Shown here piece after piece: positions 5,020-40,622 of a DNA stretch of 40,622 nt; position 1 is the first letter of the stretch, and every line of letters begins with the position of its first letter. Source of the DNA: a virus (taxonomy: Duplodnaviria; Heunggongvirae; Uroviricota; Caudoviricetes); the IMG/VR virus record IMGVR_UViG_2671180275_000009, positions 1-40,622 of that record; one strand, given 5' to 3'. Position numbers and translations under genes: made by a program. Under the pieces are notes generated by a model that was not told the origin of the DNA, did no database searches, and saw only the letters and a program-made list of their open reading frames with translations.

Positions 5020-5952
5020 ATGACCGATATTAACGATGTAATCAAGACCATTGATGAGCTTATTGATGGCGGCGTACTGACGCAGTATGCCATCGCCAGA
5101 GAGGCGGGAATTTCCGACGGCACATTATCGGCTTTCCGCAAGGGAAAATATAAAGGCGATAACGCTGCTGTGGCTGCTTCCCTGCGCTCCTGGTATGAGA
5201 ACTGGAATAAACAAAGCGCACTGCCCGAGCCGCCGCAGTTTGTGGAAACGCAGACAGTCCAGGAGCTGCGCGCGCTGTTTCAGGCGGTCCGCCTGATGGG
5301 CTGTATTAACGTCATAGTGGGCGTGCCCGGGGTGGGTAAAACGGCCACGGCTCGTAATTACTGTCAGGAACAACCGAACACCTGGATGATCACCCTGTCG
5401 CCCGCGCATTCCAGCGTCACGGAGTGTCTGCTGGAGCTGGCAGAGGAACTGGGGATTGATTACACCCGCGCGAACAAGGGGGCGTTATCCCGCGCCATCC
5501 GCCGTCGCCTGATGGGAACGCGTGGACTGGTGATTGTTGATGAGGCGGATCACCTTGGTATTGACGGTCTGGAACAACTGCGTGCAATCCAGGACGCCAC
5601 GGGGATCGGGATGGTGCTTATTGGTAACCCACGCGGACTGTTTAAGGGTGGACGCCGCGCCGTTGATGATTTATCGCGCCTGTTCAGTCGTCTTGCCCGT
5701 ACAAAACAACTTCGCAAGGCCAAAAAGGCGGATGTGCTGGCCATTGCCAGGGCATGGGGGATTAGTGGTGAGGCCGAGCTGGCTGTCATGCAGGCTATCG
5801 CTGAAAAGCCGGGAGCCTTACGCGTTCTGACACATACGCTTAACCAGGCGTGGATCACCGCCAGCGGTGAAGGCGCGGCGCTGACAGAAAAACATATTAA
5901 TGCGGCCTTTAAAGAGGTTTATACCAACCCTGAATTACTCTCACAGGTGTGA
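5020..5952 (+). CDS. B: Mu B-type transposition ATPase
   Basis: 310-aa ORF with N-terminal HTH-like region and Walker A GVPGVGKT; immediately downstream of A. Confidence 0.85.
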   Translation: MTDINDVIKTIDELIDGGVLTQYAIAREAGISDGTLSAFRKGKYKGDNAAVAASLRSWYENWNKQSALPEPPQFVETQTVQELRALFQAVRLMGCINVIVGVPGVGKTATARNYCQEQPNTWMITLSPAHSSVTECLLELAEELGIDYTRANKGALSRAIRRRLMGTRGLVIVDEADHLGIDGLEQLRAIQDATGIGMVLIGNPRGLFKGGRRAVDDLSRLFSRLARTKQLRKAKKADVLAIARAWGISGEAELAVMQAIAEKPGALRVLTHTLNQAWITASGEGAALTEKHINAAFKEVYTNPELLSQV

Positions 5953-10653: not shown

Positions 10654-10873
10654 TGCCCATGCAGGCCCGGAGATTGTCGAAATGCCAGTTTGTATTAATA
10701 TATGAGCCATCCTGGTGTCCCTCTGCGCTTTGGGGTGCGGCACTTTTTTGAGCAATATTGATAATATGTGTTGCCTCCTCACGGGAAATAACCCCCTTAT
10801 CGAACAGGGTTACCATAAGATTTCCAGCCATTGTGAATGCGGCAACATCAAGGGCATTTTTTATATCTGACAT
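10634..10873 (-). CDS. Hypothetical protein on the opposite strand within the early region
   Basis: 79-aa minus-strand ORF with AAGGA RBS 7 nt before its ATG; convergent with and overlapping the 3' end of the previous plus-strand ORF. Confidence 0.45.
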   Translation of the reverse strand: MSDIKNALDVAAFTMAGNLMVTLFDKGVISREEATHIINIAQKSAAPQSAEGHQDGSYINTNWHFDNLRACMGITAKKD

Positions 10874-31346: not shown

Positions 31347-31776
31347 TATTGCCGTGATATGGAAACAGGGGCATGGTGCACTGCAACTGAATGGCGCAGA
31401 TCTTCTGACAGACAATACATTGCAGACGGCAGTGATTATCTCACTGTTTACTGATCGTCGAGCCCTGGCATCAGATGTCATACCAGATGGTACCCGCGAT
31501 CGCCGTGGATGGTGGGGTGACAGCTTCCGGGAATACCCCATAGGCTCCCGTCTGTGGTTGCTGAGCCGGGAAAAAACGCTTACTTCGGTGGTAAGTCGTG
31601 CACAGGCGTATGCGGATGAGGCGCTGGCATGGCTTCGTCAGAGCGGCGTTGCATCGGATGTTGTGTGTCGTGCTGAACGAACGGCGCACGAGCAACTTTC
31701 ATTATTTGTTGAAATCACGCTGCCGGACGGCAGTCGGGAACCCATGATTTTTTATGCTGATATTAAGGGGGAATGA
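31339..31776 (+). CDS. Baseplate wedge protein (Mu gp46-like)
   Basis: AGGAGG RBS before ATG 31339; track start 31210 is probably an extension. Confidence 0.55.
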   Translation: MADIAVIWKQGHGALQLNGADLLTDNTLQTAVIISLFTDRRALASDVIPDGTRDRRGWWGDSFREYPIGSRLWLLSREKTLTSVVSRAQAYADEALAWLRQSGVASDVVCRAERTAHEQLSLFVEITLPDGSREPMIFYADIKGE

Positions 31777-32858
31777 TGCCTTATCAGCCCTTGCCACTGG
31801 CGCAACTGATCACCCAGACACAGCAGGATATCAGCCAGCGTCTTCCCGGTTCCCAGCCGGGTGTGAGTGAAACAACATTAAATGCCATTGCATATGCTCA
31901 GGCCGGGTTGTCTGCGCAGGAGCATGAGCACCTTGCCTGGATTGCCAGGCAGATTATTCCGACAGAAGCAGACGAGGCTGAACTGCTGAAACACTGTTCC
32001 TTCTGGGGTGTGATCCGTAAACCGGCATCACGTGGCGATGGTCCCGTCCAGTTGATGCTGACGACAGATGCCGGGGTGACCGAAGGGGTACAACTTCAGC
32101 GCAGTGATGGTGAGGTGTACCGCATCACCGGGTCTGTTACCGGAAAGGCCGGAACCCTGACCGTGCAGGTTGAAGCGGAAAATGCAGGTCGTTCCGGTAA
32201 TGCCCCAGCAGGTACCCCCCTGACGTTCGTCACCCCGCAGGCGGGTATAAATCAGACAGCCACCATTACCGGTACGGGGATCACCGGAGGTGCGGATGTT
32301 GAGTCAGTCCCGGAATTGCTGTCCCGCCTGGTGTTTCGTGTACAGAATCCACCATCCGGTGGTACGCAGTATGATTTTGAGCGCTGGGCGCGTGAAGTTC
32401 CGGGGGTAACCCGTGCATGGTGTAAACCGGAATGGCCTCAGGCTGGCAGCGTTGGAGTGACCTTTGTTCAGGATAACAACCCTGATATTTTCCCCGGCGA
32501 AGGTGACGTACAGCGCGTGGCGGAATATATCCGTAGCCATGATGATCCAGCAACGGGGCAACCCGTCGGACAGCCACTGGGACCAACGGTAAAGGTCTTT
32601 AAGTTAACGAATAAGCCCGTGGATTTTGAAATCCGCATAGTCCCGAAAACGCCGGAGAACCAGGCTGCTGTAAAGCAGGCGCTGACAGACCTGTTGTATA
32701 ACGAATCAAGCCCGGGGGCCCTGGTTCTTCCGTCTTCATTCTGGCGAACCGTGGCAGGTGTGAAAAATCTTGAGGATTTTGAAGTCCGCAGCCCCCTCAA
32801 ATCGGTTATGGCTGGTGATGCTGAATTGCTGACGGTGGGAGAAATTACATGGCTCTGA
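31773..32858 (+). CDS. Baseplate J-like protein (Mu gp47-like)
   Basis: 361-aa ORF, position. Confidence 0.6.
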   Translation: MMPYQPLPLAQLITQTQQDISQRLPGSQPGVSETTLNAIAYAQAGLSAQEHEHLAWIARQIIPTEADEAELLKHCSFWGVIRKPASRGDGPVQLMLTTDAGVTEGVQLQRSDGEVYRITGSVTGKAGTLTVQVEAENAGRSGNAPAGTPLTFVTPQAGINQTATITGTGITGGADVESVPELLSRLVFRVQNPPSGGTQYDFERWAREVPGVTRAWCKPEWPQAGSVGVTFVQDNNPDIFPGEGDVQRVAEYIRSHDDPATGQPVGQPLGPTVKVFKLTNKPVDFEIRIVPKTPENQAAVKQALTDLLYNESSPGALVLPSSFWRTVAGVKNLEDFEVRSPLKSVMAGDAELLTVGEITWL

Positions 32859-33406
32859 CGCTTGCAGCTCATCAGCGCGCATTGTTGCAGCTCCTACCCG
32901 ATGGCCTGGCATGGGATAAACGTCCTGAATCCGTGTTGTCAGCCTTATGTCTTGGGCTAAGTCACGCCACCGAGCGTGTATCCTGGACGGCTAATCAGTT
33001 ACTTTCGGAGCGCTTTCCGGAAACATCCCGGATGTTACTGGAGGACTGGGAGCGTTATCTGGGGTTGCCTGAATGTGATATGGCAGGAGCAACGTTGCAG
33101 GAGCGCCAGCGATACGCGGCGAATAAATACCGTATGAAGCCGTCACTGAACCGCGAGTTTTATATCCGGTTTGCGGCTGAATTTGGCTATGTGATTGATA
33201 TTCAGCCATCACCGGAATCGCAGTGGATCAGTATTGTGACCGTAAAAAGCGAGGTTGGGTATCGTCACATGCATGTGCTCGATCACATTCTGACGCCTCT
33301 GCGGATATATGAAGGTGGTGCGCTGGAATGCATTTTAAACCGGTATAAACCGGCCTGGCAGACGTTTTTATACATTTACGAAAAGTCGCATGAGGAGACG
33401 GAATAA
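32849..33406 (+). CDS. Tail protein (Mu gp48-like)
   Basis: 185-aa ORF immediately upstream of the tail fibre gene. Confidence 0.5.
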   Translation: MALTLAAHQRALLQLLPDGLAWDKRPESVLSALCLGLSHATERVSWTANQLLSERFPETSRMLLEDWERYLGLPECDMAGATLQERQRYAANKYRMKPSLNREFYIRFAAEFGYVIDIQPSPESQWISIVTVKSEVGYRHMHVLDHILTPLRIYEGGALECILNRYKPAWQTFLYIYEKSHEETE

Positions 33407-34374
33407 TGTATTTCGTGGATAACAATACCGGTACGACAGAGATGCCAGCGCTGGCTCCATCGCAGGGTACTGAAGTTAAGTGGTTTACGGAAGGCGACGG
33501 TAATAAAGGTATCAGCCATATCGGGCAGGACTGGCTTAATATCATTCAGGCAGAATTGCTTGCGATTTTGACTGAAGGAAAAATTCAACCAGATAAAATG
33601 AAGCTGAATCAGCTTACACTGGCAATCAAGGCCATTATTACGGCCAATGCTTTTTTACGTAAAAACAACCTGAAAGAAATCGAGGATGCGGGAGCTGGTG
33701 CTCAGGCGAATGCCAGAAAAGCTCTTGGGCTGGGGACTCTGGCGACAAAAGATAAGCTTTCACCAACAGATGTTGGTGCGCTTGAAAAAAGCAAAAATTT
33801 GTCTGACGTACCCGATAAAGTTGCGGCCCGTACCAACCTTGGGGTTTACAGTAAAGAAGAAGGTGATCGGCGTTATCTGAAAAGCGGCGCAGATATTGGT
33901 TCATATAGTCGCGAACAAAGTGATGGGTCATATCTTAAGGTTGCGTCAAATGGTTCTGACATTGCAAACAGAAGTGCCTTTATCGATAACCTCGGTTTAC
34001 GGGAAACGGTAAACAGGGCGGCGAATGCCCTGCCATCGAACGGAACGGCCGTTGCCGCGAACAGGCTGGCAAATGCCCACACAATTAATGGTGTTCCCTT
34101 TGACGGAACGCAGGATATCAACATTACCTCCGGTATGACCGAAGCTGCTGCTGATAACAAATACGTTCGCAACGTTCAGCTTGGTGCCCAGAGTTACCAT
34201 TCACCCGGAGGTAATGAAATGTCCTGGAGTTATGGCGCGCCTTCCGGTTGTATGCTTTCAGGTATTAACGTGCAGGAGACCGGGAGAAATTCAGCCGATA
34301 ATATCGGAGGCGTTTATTACCGTCCGGTGCAGATATATATCGGTAATGCCTGGCGCACAGTTTCATCCGTCTGA
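33406..34374 (+). CDS. Tail fibre protein S: constant N-terminal part (to ~33990) fused to the currently expressed variable C-terminus
   Basis: 322-aa ORF; C-terminal third is homologous to the inverted alternative exon at 35422-35051 (AANRLAN..INGVPFDGT.DINITSGM). Confidence 0.75.
   Translation: MYFVDNNTGTTEMPALAPSQGTEVKWFTEGDGNKGISHIGQDWLNIIQAELLAILTEGKIQPDKMKLNQLTLAIKAIITANAFLRKNNLKEIEDAGAGAQANARKALGLGTLATKDKLSPTDVGALEKSKNLSDVPDKVAARTNLGVYSKEEGDRRYLKSGADIGSYSREQSDGSYLKVASNGSDIANRSAFIDNLGLRETVNRAANALPSNGTAVAANRLANAHTINGVPFDGTQDINITSGMTEAAADNKYVRNVQLGAQSYHSPGGNEMSWSYGAPSGCMLSGINVQETGRNSADNIGGVYYRPVQIYIGNAWRTVSSV
33980..34005 (+). other. gix/hix-like 26-bp recombination site, left
   Basis: TTATCGATAACC TC GGTTTACGGGAA resembles the Gin/Hin site consensus as I remember it (TTATC..AAACC nn GGTTT..GATAA); lies inside S codons D-N-L-G-L-R-E-T. 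Confidence 0.6.
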
Positions 34375-34383
34375 TTAAAGGAA

Positions 34384-34406
34384 AAGGGTGCGATAAGCAC
34401 CCTTTA
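34384..34406. terminator. Hairpin between convergent S and tail fibre assembly genes (candidate bidirectional terminator)
   Basis: AAAGGGTGC / GCACCCTTT 9-bp stem with GATAA loop. Confidence 0.45.
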
Positions 34407-34408
34407 CG

Positions 34409-34951
34409 TTATTCAGGCTTCTCCGGCCATTTAATGTCGTCAAATTCAGCTTTGTTTTTAATCGCTGGTAGTTCCATTTTTTTCACCTGACTGATGTATG
34501 CCATCCATCGGGTAAGTGCGGCTCTGTCTTCATCACTGATGGTGCCCAGCTGTAATTCTGTTCTCCAGTCATTAATTTTTTCATATGCCTGATTAAGATA
34601 TGACTGGCGCATTGCTTCCAGTTTTCTTGCGTAGTTAACCGGAATACGGGAGATCACGCCATTATCAAACTTCCAGTTACCCGAAATATCAGCACCTTCA
34701 GGGAGTTCGTCGACTTCAACCACAGAGAACCCCGCAGGATACAGCGCCGAAGCGTCCTGTGATATTGAGCAGATAATGCCGCTGTCAGGTGTTATACAAA
34801 GTTTATATTTTTTTGTGAATAATGGCAGGGACTCGTAGAAATCCTTACCATCTTCACTCTGAAAATACTGTACATCATTACCATAGAGGGTGTTTTCCGG
34901 GTAATATCGTTTAACATTAATCAGTTGCATAAACATCACCATGTGAATCAA
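34409..34951 (-). CDS. Tail fibre assembly protein (Tfa / Mu U family)
   Basis: 180-aa ORF ending ...FDDIKWPEKPE, typical C-terminus of phage tail fibre assembly chaperones. Confidence 0.75.
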   Translation of the reverse strand: MIHMVMFMQLINVKRYYPENTLYGNDVQYFQSEDGKDFYESLPLFTKKYKLCITPDSGIICSISQDASALYPAGFSVVEVDELPEGADISGNWKFDNGVISRIPVNYARKLEAMRQSYLNQAYEKINDWRTELQLGTISDEDRAALTRWMAYISQVKKMELPAIKNKAEFDDIKWPEKPE

Positions 34952-35050
34952 TGATAAAAACAGGAATAATACTATCGCTATATACGGACAGGGGTTGTCT
35001 GAGATAACGCATATATCAGGCGCTGCCTGCCGTACGCCATGAGCCGTTAA

Positions 35051-35422
35051 TTAAATACTTGCAGCGGATACCCAATTCCCATTAATACAATATTGTATCT
35101 GTCTGTAATAAACACGGTCATCACCACCACGCATTTCCCAGTCTCCGTCAGTCTTAAAACCGGTAATCACATTTCCTGATGACAGGGAGTAATTATATTC
35201 CAGTACGCCGCTTAATGCCTGCGCTCCCAGTCTTACCCCTGTAACATAACGCTGATTGGCCGTTGATTCCGGCATTCCTGACGTAATGTTTATATCCCGC
35301 GTCCCGTCGAAAGGAACACCATTAATATTTCTTGGGGTGGCGAGTCTGTTTGCTGCCACGGCGGTTCCCCCCGATGGCAGGGCATCAGCGGCCTTATTTA
35401 CCGTTTCCCGTAAACCGAGGTT
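35051..35422 (-). CDS. Alternative tail fibre C-terminal exon with no start of its own
   Basis: Reading frame opens immediately after a TGA inside the right gix-like site and encodes NLGLRETVNKAADALPSGGTAVAANRLATPRNINGVPFDGTRDINITSGM..., homologous to S residues from the crossover point. Confidence 0.65.
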   Translation of the reverse strand, partial: NLGLRETVNKAADALPSGGTAVAANRLATPRNINGVPFDGTRDINITSGMPESTANQRYVTGVRLGAQALSGVLEYNYSLSSGNVITGFKTDGDWEMRGGDDRVYYRQIQYCINGNWVSAASI

Positions 35423-35430
35423 TCAGGGAT
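35405..35430 (+). other. gix/hix-like 26-bp recombination site, right (inverted relative to left)
   Basis: TTCCCGTAAACC GA GGTTTCAGGGAT; its reverse complement shares the half-site GGTTTACGGGAA and centre TC with the left site. Confidence 0.6.
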
Positions 35431-35484
35431 GCCGTATATCTGCTTTAAAAAGCATTTCCACCTCTTTTTAAGGAAGGTAAATAC

Positions 35485-36045
35485 ATGCTGATTGGCTATA
35501 TACGCGTATCAACAAATGACCAGAACACAGGTTTACAAAGAAATGCGCTGGAATGTGCAGGATGTGAGCAGATTTTTGAAGACAAAATGAGTGGTAAAAC
35601 GACGCAGCGGCCGGGACTGAAGCGGGCACTGAAGAAACTAAAACCCGGCGACACACTGATGGTCTGGAAACTGGACAGGCTGGGGCGCAGTATGCGCCAC
35701 CTTGTTGCGCTGACAGATGAATTACAGCAACAGGGGATAAATTTTCGTAGTCTTACTGACAACATTGATACGTCAACCCCCATGGGGCGCTTCTTTTTTC
35801 ACATAATGGGTGCGCTGGCAGAAATGGAGCGTGAATTGATTGTCGAACGGACACGGGCTGGTCTTGCTGCTGCCCGTGAAAGGGGACGAACCGGCGGCAG
35901 ACCCCGTCGTCTCACGCAGGAACAATACGAGCAGGTCGGGCGTTTACTGGCCGGGGGTGTCAGCCGAAGACAGGTGGCACTTATTTTTGATATCGGCCTT
36001 TCAACCCTTTATCGTTATTATCCTGCGAGCGTTTCGGAAAAATAA
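35485..36045 (+). CDS. gin: Gin/Hin/Cin-family serine DNA invertase
   Basis: 186-aa ORF starting MLIGYIRVSTNDQNTGLQRNAL (catalytic Ser motif) with C-terminal HTH; adjacent to invertible segment. Confidence 0.85.
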   Translation: MLIGYIRVSTNDQNTGLQRNALECAGCEQIFEDKMSGKTTQRPGLKRALKKLKPGDTLMVWKLDRLGRSMRHLVALTDELQQQGINFRSLTDNIDTSTPMGRFFFHIMGALAEMERELIVERTRAGLAAARERGRTGGRPRRLTQEQYEQVGRLLAGGVSRRQVALIFDIGLSTLYRYYPASVSEK

Positions 36046-36144
36046 GACGCTCTCTTTGTTGGGCCTTTACTGAATTAACGCAAAATGGCGTTTATCGGTC
36101 TGTGGATATGATAATTCTGTTTATTCAGGAACAGGCTGATTATT

Positions 36145-38184
36145 ATGACGTCCAAATGGGTTCAACTATCATCAATGCCCGGAAACTTTACTGTTAAAGT
36201 TTCCGGTGGTACAGCGGCATTTCTTGAGGCTCCCTTTCCTCCGGCCGAAACAAAAGGAGGAATGACATTTGCTGACTGTCTCATCAGTTTTAATACACGG
36301 GATTGCCTGTGGGTAAGGCCAGTATCCGGTGATCCGAGCGTGGAAATTACCGGTGCGGGTATTGGTGCTGTCATTCCGTTAAGTGCTGATGTTGCCGGTA
36401 CTGCTGAACCGTCAGACTGGGATAATGCTGAAACACATACCCGTCCGTCAGGAAATGAAACTGCTTCCAGCTCCCCTTCCTGGTATTACGTGGTGGTTCT
36501 TGCTGGTCAGTCAAACGGGATGGCCTACGGTGAAGGTCTGCCGCTGCCGGAGACATATGACCGCCCCGAACCGCGTATTATGCAGTTAGCCCGTCGCAGT
36601 ACAGTCACGCCGGGAGGTAAAGCCTGTCAGTATAACGACATCATTCTGGCCGACCACTGTCTGCATGATGTGCAGGATATGAGTGGAAAAAATCACCCGA
36701 AAGCGGATGTGGCTAAAGGGCAATATGGCACCGTGGGTCAGGGGCTTCACATTGCCAAAAAACTGCTGCCGTTTATTCCGGCAGATGCGGGGATTCTGCT
36801 GGTTCCCTGCTGCCGTGGTGGTTCTGCATTCACGGCGGGTGCTGACGGCACGTACAGTGACAGCACGGGTGCTTCAGAGGACTCAGCCCGCTGGGGTGTG
36901 GATAAGCCGCTGTATAAGGACTTAATCAGCCGGACAAAAGCGGCACTGGCGAAGAACCCGAAAAACCGCCTGCTTGCTGTGGTGTGGATGCAGGGCGAGT
37001 TTGATATTGATGCGAAGCCGACGGAGCATTCCGCGCTGTTTCTGGCGATGGTGGAAAAATTCCGCGCAGACCTGGCTGAACAGGCGGAACAGTGTACCGG
37101 TGGCAGTGCTGCTGGCGTTCCGTGGATTTGTGGCGATACCACGTATTTCTGGAAACAGAAAAACGAACAGGCATACCAGGCAATCTATGACGGCTACAAA
37201 AATAAAACAGATAAAAACATTCATTTCGTCCCATTAATGACAGATGAAAATGGCGCGAATGTACCCACCAACAATCCGACAGAAGACCCGGATATTGAAT
37301 CCATTGGTTATTACGGCTCAACGTGGCGTAACAGTGCCGCCACCTGGACATCTGCGGGCCGGGCCAGCCATTTCAGTTCATGGGCACGTCGTGGGATTAT
37401 TTCCGACCGTCTGGCCACGGCTGTTCTGACTCATGCAGGGCGAACCACAGTAAAAGCCGATGTTCCATCTTCTGAAACTGAAGCACCAGTGCCGTCACCT
37501 TCAGAAACTGAAGCAGTAACCACAACACTGCTGTCTTACCGTGTCAGTGAGTCAGAAGGAAATCTGAAAGCCCAGGGCTGGGAGCCGGCTGGCGGTAAAG
37601 CTGAAATTATCAGTGATGCAGGAGGCACAGGTGGTAAGGCAATGAAACTGACCAAGGAAACAGGTAAATCATCCTGGTATCTGGATCATGATGCCGGTAC
37701 TGGTGCTGAACTGCTGAAAAATGGTGGTTTAATCAGTTGTCGTTTTAAAGTACCTGGCGACCTGGTGGCAAACCAGTATGTCATGGCGCTTTACTGGCCG
37801 GTTTCCTCTCTGCCGCAGGGTGTCACCCTGACAGGGGATGCAGGGAATAATCTGCTGGCATCGTTCTACATCCAGACAGACGCAAAAGACCTGAATGTGA
37901 TGCACCACAATGCAAAAGTGGCAACAAATAACCAGAAACTGGGAACCTTTGGTGTATTTGATAATGAATGGCATACGCTGGCCTTCCGTTTTGCAGGAAA
38001 TAACAGCCTTCAGGTTATTCCGGTTATTGATGGTCAGGATGGTGCCGCGTTTACCCTGACGCAGTCACCAGTAGGAACTTTCCCGGTGGACAAACTCCGC
38101 GTAACGGATATCACCAAAAATGCAACTTACCCGGTGCTGATTGACAGCATTGTGGTGGAAGTGAAAAAAGCGGTAACAGAATAA
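36145..38184 (+). CDS. Putative carbohydrate O-acetylesterase (SGNH/SASA family, NanS-like) with additional N- and C-terminal domains
   Basis: 679-aa ORF with YYVVVLAGQSNGMAYGEG (GQSN active-site motif of sialate O-acetylesterase-type hydrolases); GATAAT -10-like element upstream. Confidence 0.55.
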   Translation: MTSKWVQLSSMPGNFTVKVSGGTAAFLEAPFPPAETKGGMTFADCLISFNTRDCLWVRPVSGDPSVEITGAGIGAVIPLSADVAGTAEPSDWDNAETHTRPSGNETASSSPSWYYVVVLAGQSNGMAYGEGLPLPETYDRPEPRIMQLARRSTVTPGGKACQYNDIILADHCLHDVQDMSGKNHPKADVAKGQYGTVGQGLHIAKKLLPFIPADAGILLVPCCRGGSAFTAGADGTYSDSTGASEDSARWGVDKPLYKDLISRTKAALAKNPKNRLLAVVWMQGEFDIDAKPTEHSALFLAMVEKFRADLAEQAEQCTGGSAAGVPWICGDTTYFWKQKNEQAYQAIYDGYKNKTDKNIHFVPLMTDENGANVPTNNPTEDPDIESIGYYGSTWRNSAATWTSAGRASHFSSWARRGIISDRLATAVLTHAGRTTVKADVPSSETEAPVPSPSETEAVTTTLLSYRVSESEGNLKAQGWEPAGGKAEIISDAGGTGGKAMKLTKETGKSSWYLDHDAGTGAELLKNGGLISCRFKVPGDLVANQYVMALYWPVSSLPQGVTLTGDAGNNLLASFYIQTDAKDLNVMHHNAKVATNNQKLGTFGVFDNEWHTLAFRFAGNNSLQVIPVIDGQDGAAFTLTQSPVGTFPVDKLRVTDITKNATYPVLIDSIVVEVKKAVTE

Positions 38185-39368: not shown

Positions 39369-39415
39369 GATTGCATGAGAAAGGCATCAACAACAAAGCA
39401 GGAGGTTATGCGGCC

Positions 39416-39601
39416 ATGTATCGAAACATACGGTGCCGACACTGCAATAAGCTACTGGCACGGGCCAGTTTCAGTTATCTGGAAGTAAAATGTCCGCGCT
39501 GCAAAACCCTCAATCAAATCACATCTCAGAGCGCCACAGAGCACCCCACATACACAAGGAAATCCTGCCGTGGGGAACAAGAAACATTACTTTCAGTCTG
39601 A
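39416..39601 (+). CDS. com: Com-like zinc-finger translational activator
   Basis: MYRNIRCRHCNKLLARASFSYLEVKCPRCK closely resembles my recollection of Mu Com (IRCKNCNKLL...IEIRCPRCK); GGAGG RBS; 3' end overlaps the next gene. Confidence 0.8.
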   Translation: MYRNIRCRHCNKLLARASFSYLEVKCPRCKTLNQITSQSATEHPTYTRKSCRGEQETLLSV

Positions 39602-40622
39602 TAAGTCACTAACCTATGGTTCAGTATGCAGTGGTATTGAAGCTGCGACAGTAGCCTGGAGCAATCTTGGCTGGAAAGCCAGATGGTTCAGTGAAATAGA
39701 GGACTTCCCGTCAACACTTCTTTCATATCGCTGGCCCCATATACCAAATCTTGGTGATATGGCTTTGCTTGCGCCTCGTATCAGGGATGGGCTTATTGAA
39801 GCACCAGATATTCTTGTAGGTGGAACTCCGTGTCAGGCATTCAGTATGTCAGGCAAACGAAAAGGCCTTTCAGATCCACGGGGGCAGTTAACACTGTCTT
39901 TTGTTGAACTGGCGAATCAGATAGATACCGTTCGGGCATCGCTCAATAAATCCCCCTCAATAATCGTATGGGAAAACGTCACAGGAGTTTTAAGTAGCCA
40001 TGACAATGCATTCGGTCATTTTCTTGGTGCGCTGGCCGGAGCAGGTTGCGCATTACAGCCAGCAAGGAAAAGATGGGCAAACGCTGGTGTTGTGTCTGGA
40101 CCATCGCGTATCGTCGCCTGGCGAGTACTTGATGCCCAATATTTCGGAGTCGCCCAGGCTCGCAGAAGAGTGTTTGTTGTGGCAAGTGCTGGAAAAAGGC
40201 TCGATCCCGGAAAGGTATTATTTGAGTTCCCGCCTGTGTCGCAGGGCGATAAAAACTATTACGGAAAGAAGAAAAAATCCGAATCCCTTCTTGATCAAGG
40301 CATTGAAGGAAAATTGCACCGATATTGCCTTGAAGCATTGCCAAAACGAACAGGCACAGTAATAGCTGGCTATAACGGAACAACTAACCAGGACATGACT
40401 ATGTCTGGTGGGCTCATAGTTGAAAGAGCGCCATATTCAAGGGTTCGTAGGTTGACGCCAACCGAATGCGAGAGGCTACAAGGTTTTCCCGATGGATATA
40501 CAGATATTCCATGGAAAAATTCATCTCCAGCTCATCGTTATAAGGCCATTGGAAATTCAATGCCTGTACCGGTCATGAAATGGATTGGTCGAAGAATACA
40601 GGAAGCGTTAAACGAAGTTTAA
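39570..40622 (+). CDS. C5-cytosine DNA methyltransferase (GTG start overlapping com)
   Basis: Motifs GGTPCQAFS (catalytic PCQ), IVWENV, QARRRVF and IGNSMPVPV in canonical order; stop codon is the last triplet of the window. Confidence 0.85.
   Translation: MGNKKHYFQSDKSLTYGSVCSGIEAATVAWSNLGWKARWFSEIEDFPSTLLSYRWPHIPNLGDMALLAPRIRDGLIEAPDILVGGTPCQAFSMSGKRKGLSDPRGQLTLSFVELANQIDTVRASLNKSPSIIVWENVTGVLSSHDNAFGHFLGALAGAGCALQPARKRWANAGVVSGPSRIVAWRVLDAQYFGVAQARRRVFVVASAGKRLDPGKVLFEFPPVSQGDKNYYGKKKKSESLLDQGIEGKLHRYCLEALPKRTGTVIAGYNGTTNQDMTMSGGLIVERAPYSRVRRLTPTECERLQGFPDGYTDIPWKNSSPAHRYKAIGNSMPVPVMKWIGRRIQEALNEV

Follow-up and report, generated by a model that had tools for sequence, protein, structure and literature searches.

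We found a tail-fibre host-range switch with a single chaperone gene in a 40,622-nt stretch of viral DNA (IMG/VR record IMGVR_UViG_2671180275_000009; the window hereafter means this whole stretch). The window is an E. coli Mu-like prophage carrying a Gin-type invertible segment, and the 2.8 kb compared (33300-36100) is 100% identical to a Mu-like prophage of E. coli DETEC-S792. The segment holds two alternative fibre tips, here termed Sv and Sv', and only one gene of the Tfa (tail fibre assembly) family, placed between them. Comparative evidence suggests that this Tfa is a generalist, folding either of the homologous tips, and that signals upstream of its start codon drive its expression whichever way the segment lies, a reading to which we give a little better than an even chance. 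The segment is a compact, widespread and previously undescribed variant of a well-known host-range switch.

One tail-fibre chaperone gene in a Gin-type invertible segment

A first-pass annotation of the window had pointed to one Tfa-like gene in the invertible segment where the Mu G segment carries two, U and U', and both points held: Mu has S-U and U'-S', compared with one chaperone here. The reading frame in question (34409-34951, minus strand) exists and matches Pfam PF02413 (Caudo_TAP) with an E value of 3.2e-19 and 69.8 bits (gathering cut-off 22.1), and PHROG 136 with an E value of 1e-54. The protein is 32% identical to each of Mu U and U', and phmmer matched it over residues 17-154 (E 2.3e-17) to Mu U as solved with the fibre tip (PDB 5YVQ_B). 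The longest frame reaches a TTG at 34951; the ATG at 34930, which is the RefSeq start and the start of Mu U and other homologues, is likely the true one and gives a protein of 173 amino acids (aa). When the 40.6-kb window was searched with Tfa by tblastn, the next best match had an E value of only 0.087, and a hidden Markov model (HMM) built from 14 Tfa proteins, Mu U and U' among them, gave 1.5e-90 for this frame and 1.7 for the next in a six-frame translation of the window. The annotation had allowed for a second Tfa-like gene elsewhere in the element, and these searches exclude one in the window. The features of the region are as follows.

31773-32858: baseplate gene gp47, preceding gp48 and the fibre gene
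32849-33406: baseplate gene gp48, directly before the fibre gene
33406-34374, plus strand: fibre gene, a continuous open reading frame of 322 aa in which Sc is fused in frame to Sv
33406-33993, plus strand: Sc, the constant fibre part outside the segment, following gp47 and gp48; 41% identity to Mu S residues 1-191
33980-34005: gixL, within the fibre gene, TTATCGATAACC-TC-GGTTTACGGGAA, located by pattern search; Mu gixL is TTATCCAAAACCTCGGTTTACAGGAA
33988-34143 and 35267-35422: left arm and partner of a long inverted repeat, 83% complementary
33994-34374, plus strand: Sv, the tip now fused to Sc, 126 aa and stop codon
34383-34405: GC-rich hairpin with a stem of 9 bp, separating the stop codons of the convergent Sv and Tfa
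34409-34930, minus strand: Tfa gene, 173 aa, the only Tfa in the window
34931-35050, minus strand: non-coding spacer of 120 nt, from the Sv' stop codon to the Tfa start
35051-35416, minus strand: Sv', the alternative tip (from translation), 121 aa and stop codon, currently without an N-terminal part
35405-35430: gixR, TTCCCGTAAACC-GA-GGTTTCAGGGAT; Mu gixR is TTCCTGTAAACCGAGGTTTTGGATAA
35485-36045, plus strand: Gin-type serine DNA invertase, Pfam Resolvase (E 1.4e-51) plus HTH_7

The two 26-bp crossover sites differ from the Mu gix sites by three bases on the left and four on the right, and they are inverted with a central TC/GA as in Mu. Their centres lie ~1,425 bp apart, and the order between them is Sv (plus), hairpin, Tfa (minus), spacer and Sv' (minus). 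The invertase is 75% identical to Mu Gin over 181 aa, and residues 1-110 of Sc match PDB 5YVQ_A (E 3e-31). In the alignment of the tips, the arms of the long inverted repeat encode the conserved first ~50 aa of both. Flipping of Tfa alone, in the manner of a shufflon, was rejected, as we observed neither inverted repeats flanking Tfa nor a third gix-like site, and the relatives show whole-segment isomers only.

As the annotation had stated, Tfa lies on the minus strand in the captured orientation and, with the two reading frames convergent, is not co-transcribable with the expressed fibre gene. Read along the fibre strand, the Sv stop codon is followed by the hairpin and then by the antisense of Tfa. 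The hairpin has a folding energy of -16.8 kcal/mol on the plus strand (z-score -4.0) and -15.6 kcal/mol on the minus strand (z-score -4.5), TTTTCCTTT comes after it on the Tfa strand, and it is retained at the same place in relatives, in three different sequence versions. From its sequence it is a probable bidirectional terminator, which would end both convergent transcripts. The sole further plus-strand reading frame of at least 60 aa located 3' of the fibre gene (35256-35471, 71 aa) crosses gixR. This frame runs antisense to the 5' part of Sv', is represented in RefSeq by a hypothetical protein of 61 aa and would be broken by inversion. It is probably spurious, a by-product of constraint on the opposite strand.

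Inversion joins the same Tfa to the alternative fibre

Inverting the segment in silico kept the reading frame and produced an intact 317-aa Sc-Sv' fibre, followed 120 nt downstream by Tfa on the same strand, as the annotation had anticipated. Same strand and downstream position therefore hold for Sv' after inversion, whereas the Sv fibre is now convergent with Tfa. A full-length Sc-Sv' gene is annotated in the flipped isomer L007, and this locus shares identical gp47, gp48 and Tfa proteins with locus L003, in which the segment has the opposite orientation. Moreover, the flipped loci L006 and L007 carry the half-site combinations expected for exchange at the central dinucleotide.

Orientations were counted with composite queries in which Tfa was joined to gin in either relative orientation; these replaced ordinary BLAST counts, which were biased toward the query orientation and swamped by pinE matches. 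The captured orientation was found in 25 complete E. coli genomes and the flipped one in 10, these genomes not being independent samples. A Tfa-anchored viral sample gave 7 captured and 1 flipped, locus L029 being opposite to L021 and L027. Judged from these sequenced isomers, inversion occurs in nature. Given this inversion in relatives and the 75% protein identity of the invertase to Gin, a Fis-dependent recombinational enhancer (sis) in the 5' part of the invertase gene is plausible. In a Mu-type prophage of enteropathogenic E. coli (EPEC) E2348/69, whose segment may differ from that of the window, inversion has been shown experimentally (PMC4272514).

The ~1,425-bp inversion would swap two short homologous tips, ~125 aa each, on one constant shaft. 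In the flipped state, the late operon would read through Sc-Sv', the 120-nt spacer, Tfa and the terminator hairpin. In the captured state, Tfa is convergent with the fibre gene and would be transcribed alone, most likely from the conserved ~60 nt upstream of its start codon.

The single-Tfa layout is conserved and its modules are exchanged

The order Sv, hairpin, Tfa, spacer, Sv' and invertase recurs widely. Many complete E. coli genomes have it, O157:H7 strains among them (L003-L008), as do Mu-like elements lying within Stx phages (L001) and 15 viral contigs (L019-L033). Two scans of genome contigs for related loci gave almost nothing, and the range beyond E. coli is drawn from protein matches and viral contigs. 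On this comparative evidence, the single-Tfa layout is a conserved architecture and not an accident. Related O157 strains carry Mu-like prophages of this family at different sites (PMC7430833), which together with the insertions in Stx phages indicates that these prophages are mobile.

Two clades of Tfa occur in these segments, one 87-96% identical to the Tfa of the window (clade I) and the other 64% identical (clade II), along with at least two types of Sv and three of Sv'. Tfa, Sv and Sv' were found in nearly all combinations: clade I occurs with two Sv types and two Sv' types, and clade II with the same Sv and Sv' types. The modules are so shuffled that no specific pairing of Tfa with a tip can be derived from them, and covariation of Tfa with one particular tip was ruled out as a guide. 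A comparison of 33994-35416 with L001, L003-L008 and L021-L033 shows Sv, Tfa and Sv' to be independently exchangeable modules, with recombination breakpoints near the hairpin, in or near the 5' end of Tfa and at the inverted-repeat part of the tips. At the O157:H7 loci, the variable DNA of Sv' is 99% identical while the Tfa DNA is only 60-75% identical.

Both tips end in the distal domain of Mu S

The two tips, Sv and Sv', share 50% identity over 130 aa. Each has at its C-terminus the ~70-aa distal domain of Mu S, the portion co-crystallised with U. The C-terminal 75 aa of Sv match Mu S 434-503 with an E value of 1e-3; Sv' has 56% identity to Mu S 429-503, and its match to PDB 5YVQ_A has an E value of 5.5e-22. 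All tip variants have in common the framework ...LG...G.v(l/i)tG...YYRPvQ..i.G.W...S. As both tips are variants of one Mu S distal domain, a single Tfa between them could serve both. The region 34063-34365 (fibre residues 220-320) also matches the 'short tail fiber' chain of PDB 9cuy (E 2.6e-15), so that this distal domain also occurs in phage fibres of other solved structures.

The usual partner of the Sv-type tip was apparent from loci that do not invert. Among 80 viral contigs, ~45 non-invertible loci carry an Sv-like tip followed by Tfa 14-20 nt on. The Tfa of these fixed loci are 46-57% identical to that of the window, and their best-matching tip is always of the Sv type; the fibres measure 331-365 aa, that of L011 being 56% identical in its last 113 aa. 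A fixed Sv-like tip is thus always accompanied by a directly downstream Tfa, indicating that this tip type normally uses one. This pairing places the Tfa of the window in the clade that normally works with Sv-type tips, while Mu U, which partners the Sv'-like tip of Mu S, has only 32% identity to it. By homology, the Tfa of the window would be at least as much a partner of Sv as of Sv'.

Selection on the genes was compared. The dN/dS of Sv is 0.06-0.12 at a dS of 0.6-2, against 0.2-0.3 for Sv' and 0.1-0.2 for Tfa. Purifying selection on Sv is strong, and at least equals that on Tfa and Sv', which argues that the fibre of the captured orientation is a working protein. These values bear on the proposal that the captured orientation is an OFF state, or that the segment is a decayed two-Tfa G segment which has lost U, its particles being fibre-defective. 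One chaperone fewer than in Mu would be expected in that case, and the family has no cultured representative. The constraint on Sv points the other way, as do the persistence of the architecture across three spacer classes, two Tfa clades at 64% identity and several tip types, the excess of captured over flipped copies, both among genomes (25 vs 10) and among the viral contigs sampled through Tfa (7 vs 1), and the recent mobility implied by the different sites in related O157 strains and by the presence in Stx phages. We regard an OFF or decayed state as very improbable.

A locked lineage maintains Tfa convergent with the fibre gene

A lineage was identified in which the segment is locked by the loss of gixR, Sv' and gin, the deletion running from ~codon 167 of the invertase to the Sv' stop codon, so that only the last ~15 gin codons remain. 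Its members are four viral contigs (L020, L023, L024 and L028) and seven complete E. coli genomes including strain CI5, and the locked arrangement lies at 4197-5022 of L028 and at 20118-20943 of L099 (E. coli CI5, NZ_CP011018, prophage at ~4269400-4294400). The lineage keeps a full-length S convergent with an intact Tfa and the same spacer upstream, and the gene of a 679-aa esterase-like protein, described below, is left adjoining Tfa. Two locked members have the junction in common and are 89% identical across it, with different Sv types; their Tfa show a dN/dS of 0.11 at a dS of 0.43. The late genes of the CI5 prophage are otherwise unflagged. As no inversion is possible in this lineage, Tfa is never co-transcribed with the fibre gene, yet it is maintained.

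This lineage is informative for a competing explanation, in which Tfa is made only after inversion, together with Sv', and the Sv fibre folds without a phage Tfa or borrows one from a lambdoid or P2-like prophage; the two states would then differ structurally at the tip, with and without bound Tfa. The gene order and strand are those expected from it, no convincing Tfa promoter was found, and Caudo_TAP genes are common in E. coli prophages, as protein matches show. In addition, a passage of PMC7432712, citing North 2019, has Mu Tfa remaining on the virion fibre, so that its presence could matter for receptor binding. Expression of Tfa after inversion only is difficult to reconcile with the directly downstream Tfa at every fixed Sv-like locus, with the purifying selection on Tfa in the locked lineage and with the conservation of the spacer (below), and we consider it unlikely, though worth keeping in view. 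Grundy and Howe are said to have observed in 1984 that Mu U amber mutants are unrescued by the resident tfa genes of K-12. A related view, in which inversion itself toggles the chaperone supply, the flipped fibre having Tfa and the captured Sv fibre lacking phage Tfa, seems improbable to us. If it were true, a single flip of a 1.4-kb cassette would change the tip sequence and at the same time add or remove the Tfa cap, so that the two receptor-binding tips would differ in architecture. A late promoter within the invertible segment, transcribing the chaperone gene head-on towards the fibre operon, would be a weaker alternative to this toggle, though still new.

The first-pass annotation had concluded that the fibre now in frame has no cognate downstream chaperone on its strand. 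This is correct in so far as no Tfa lies downstream on the fibre strand, while the implication that a cognate chaperone is lacking finds no support in the tip homology, the fixed Sv-like/Tfa pairs, the selection on Sv, the 25 vs 10 genome count or the locked lineage.

A conserved spacer upstream of Tfa

The spacer before Tfa measures 51, 79 or 120 nt in single-Tfa segments, compared with 2-20 nt in fixed and two-Tfa loci. Its three versions are AT-rich and unrelated in sequence, and in all three a TAnnnT hexamer begins 39-41 nt ahead of the ATG. Within the 120-nt class, the 62 nt closest to Tfa (34931-34992) show a divergence (K) of 0.03-0.12, compared with a Tfa dS of 0.33-0.47 in the same pairs, and so have changed 3-10 times more slowly than Tfa synonymous sites; K is 0.2-0.4 in the distal half of the spacer. 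This proximal conservation is far beyond the need of a ribosome-binding site. Orientation-independent expression of Tfa is suggested because the spacer is present only in single-Tfa segments, its proximal block is conserved and the locked lineage keeps Tfa. On sequence grounds, 34931-35050 is a candidate orientation-independent promoter or leader site. An RNA element in the spacer was ruled out, since folding z-scores were at least 0 in all three spacer classes and the spacer had no Rfam match up to an E value of 1.

Promoters were sought with a promoter-scanning tool and with a sigma-70 position weight matrix of approximate frequencies. The best sigma-70-like site on the Tfa strand, ATGACC-18-TACAAT at 35121-35092 within the end of Sv', scored 9.0 bits, in the top 0.04% of positions. 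This site lies upstream of the spacer, so that the start signals of the Tfa strand need not be in the spacer, and it bears on a further alternative: Tfa of the captured state could come from a leftward promoter between gixR and gin, or in the 5' part of gin, reading through the orphan Sv'. Tfa would then depend on one external promoter in one orientation and on another in the other, with no need for an internal one. The geometry fits, as the Sv'-spacer-Tfa block of the captured state borders directly on gixR and gin. Scores on the minus strand of 35431-35700 do not stand out (~6.2-6.4 bits), and the locked lineage has deleted that region, including the 35121-35092 site, with Tfa still under selection. 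No such leftward promoter is known in Mu. We judge this external supply of Tfa to be highly improbable.

Late promoters were also considered. The four annotated Mu late promoters share ATAACCCC-N20-TAnnnT, and a Mu late-promoter-like ACAACCCC-N19-TATTAT lies within the spacer. A relaxed form of this pattern had two matches only in the window, the one in the spacer and AATAACCCC-N20-TAAGAT at 10788-10821 (plus strand). The latter is upstream of probable lysis genes and inside a short minus-strand reading frame.

Several observations weigh against a single Tfa that serves both tips from its own signals. Mu has two Tfa though S and S' share the distal domain, so that tip homology alone is no proof of sharing. 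The sigma-70 scans of the spacer were at background: its best match, TTATCT-17-TATATA, scored 6.6 bits, which is equalled in 26% of random 120-nt windows of the phage, and no promoter was demonstrated in the spacer. The late-promoter pattern was relaxed post hoc, after the spacer sequence had been seen, the CCCC box of the spacer motif is not conserved in L004 and L005, and the PI, PP and Pmom regions of the window itself do not obviously fit the Mu late consensus, which did not serve to define the late promoters of this phage. For these reasons, a Mu C-dependent late promoter in the spacer was set aside as a lead only. The spacer could instead be conserved for its role in translation or as a trace of past recombination. 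The locked lineage may be defective, or exchange with invertible relatives may refresh it, and CI5 also has a second Mu-like prophage with gin and Tfa, a possible supply in trans. Finally, we know of no cultured member of the phage family of the window. The annotation had raised the possibility of an orientation-independent promoter with Tfa serving both variants; the comparative evidence favours this reading.

Neighbouring genes

Directly after the invertase, 36145-38184 encodes a 679-aa protein with SASA/sialate O-acetylesterase-like and DUF6645 domains. It belongs to PHROG 143, of unknown function, and was present at that position in every family member examined; SfMu-like relatives have a second fibre-like gene there. 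Possible roles are those of a carbohydrate esterase associated with the virion and of a second receptor-binding protein.

Further on, the gene for a Com-type zinc-ribbon regulator (39371-39601) extends into the first part of a gene for a C5 DNA cytosine methyltransferase (39570-40622), which runs off the end of the window. The gene overlapped by Com is annotated as Mom in L003 and L015-L017 and as hypothetical in L004, L005 and L008. It appears that the anti-restriction modification gene was swapped while the com-style overlap was kept.

Implications of a shared chaperone

Each Tfa-family chaperone is usually taken to serve a single fibre, and Mu G, P1 C and e14 P carry one per tip. One Tfa with two tips, and with at least five across the relatives, suggests that the conserved framework of the distal domain is recognised and not its variable surface. 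Such recognition would be useful for engineering the host range of phages and tailocins, as tips of ~70-125 aa could be swapped with the chaperone unchanged. If Tfa has its own promoter inside the segment, Mu-like phages contain an unrecognised late transcription unit. At 1.43 kb, the cassette is the smallest complete Gin-type host-range switch found in this comparison. It is common in pathogenic E. coli including O157:H7 and may shape which strains these transposable phages can reach. Its interest for phage biology is modest, and it may have some practical use in host-range engineering.

Comparison with known invertible and fixed tail-fibre loci

The segment resembles Mu G and P1 C (Cin, cix) in its invertase, 75% identical to Gin, in its 26-bp sites, nearly identical to gix, and in the crossover site within the fibre gene, which splits a constant N-terminal part from alternative C-terminal parts. 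It also lies after gp47 and gp48 and before com, and its Tfa is homologous to U and U'. It differs in measuring 1.43 kb compared with 3 kb, in variable parts of ~125 aa that are 50% identical to each other, compared with ~335 aa, and in having one Tfa where Mu and P1 have two, so that the one-chaperone-per-tip feature of those systems is absent from the window. Furthermore, Tfa is separated from Sv' by 120 nt, whereas the gaps in Mu (S-U and U'-S') are 2 nt, and it abuts the other tip tail-to-tail across the hairpin.

The fixed S-Tfa modules of other enterobacterial Mu-like prophages (L011 from Shigella boydii, L015-L017 from E. coli) and of P2-like phages share with the window the fibre length, an Sv-like tip and the same clade of Tfa, 54-57% identical to that of the window in L011 and L015-L017. 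They are without invertase, gix sites and alternative tip, and their Tfa is on the same strand at 14-20 nt. The two-Tfa segments of Salmonella and E. coli P2-like prophages (L044, L057, L066 and L068), whose Tfa belong to the same family, have a Gin/Pin-type invertase, alternative tips and Caudo_TAP chaperones in common with the window. Their Tfa genes are arranged back-to-back, one per tip (in L057, 4501-5016 on the plus strand and 5035-5556 on the minus strand), whereas the window has the other tip itself at the position of the second Tfa. The P segment of e14 is likewise laid out as stfP-tfaP / tfaE-stfE.

Short invertible segments that exchange only the C-terminal end of the fibre are known from carotovoricin Er and the multi-tip shufflons of P2-like phages, whose fibre families are other than that of the window. 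An EPEC P2-like prophage, for instance, has three alternative C-termini generated via three inverted repeats (PMC4272514). The O157:H7 loci examined differ from the window in a Tfa of the other clade, with 64% aa identity. From two of these loci (L005 and L008), we take Sp18 of O157:H7 Sakai to be a member of the family with the single-Tfa architecture. In the published account, Sp18 is predicted to be intact and packaging of its DNA is described; the 'invertible host-specificity region' is called atypical without further analysis, and neither a single chaperone nor its orientation is mentioned (PMC2669165). In the literature searched, there was no mention of an invertible segment with a single chaperone, and Mu, D108, SfMu, Yersinia Mu-like phages, P1 and e14 are described as S-U/U'-S'. 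Taken together, by recombinase, sites and logic the segment is a member of the Gin/Cin/Pin class, from which it departs in one shared chaperone, an added spacer and a tail-to-tail junction of tip and chaperone.

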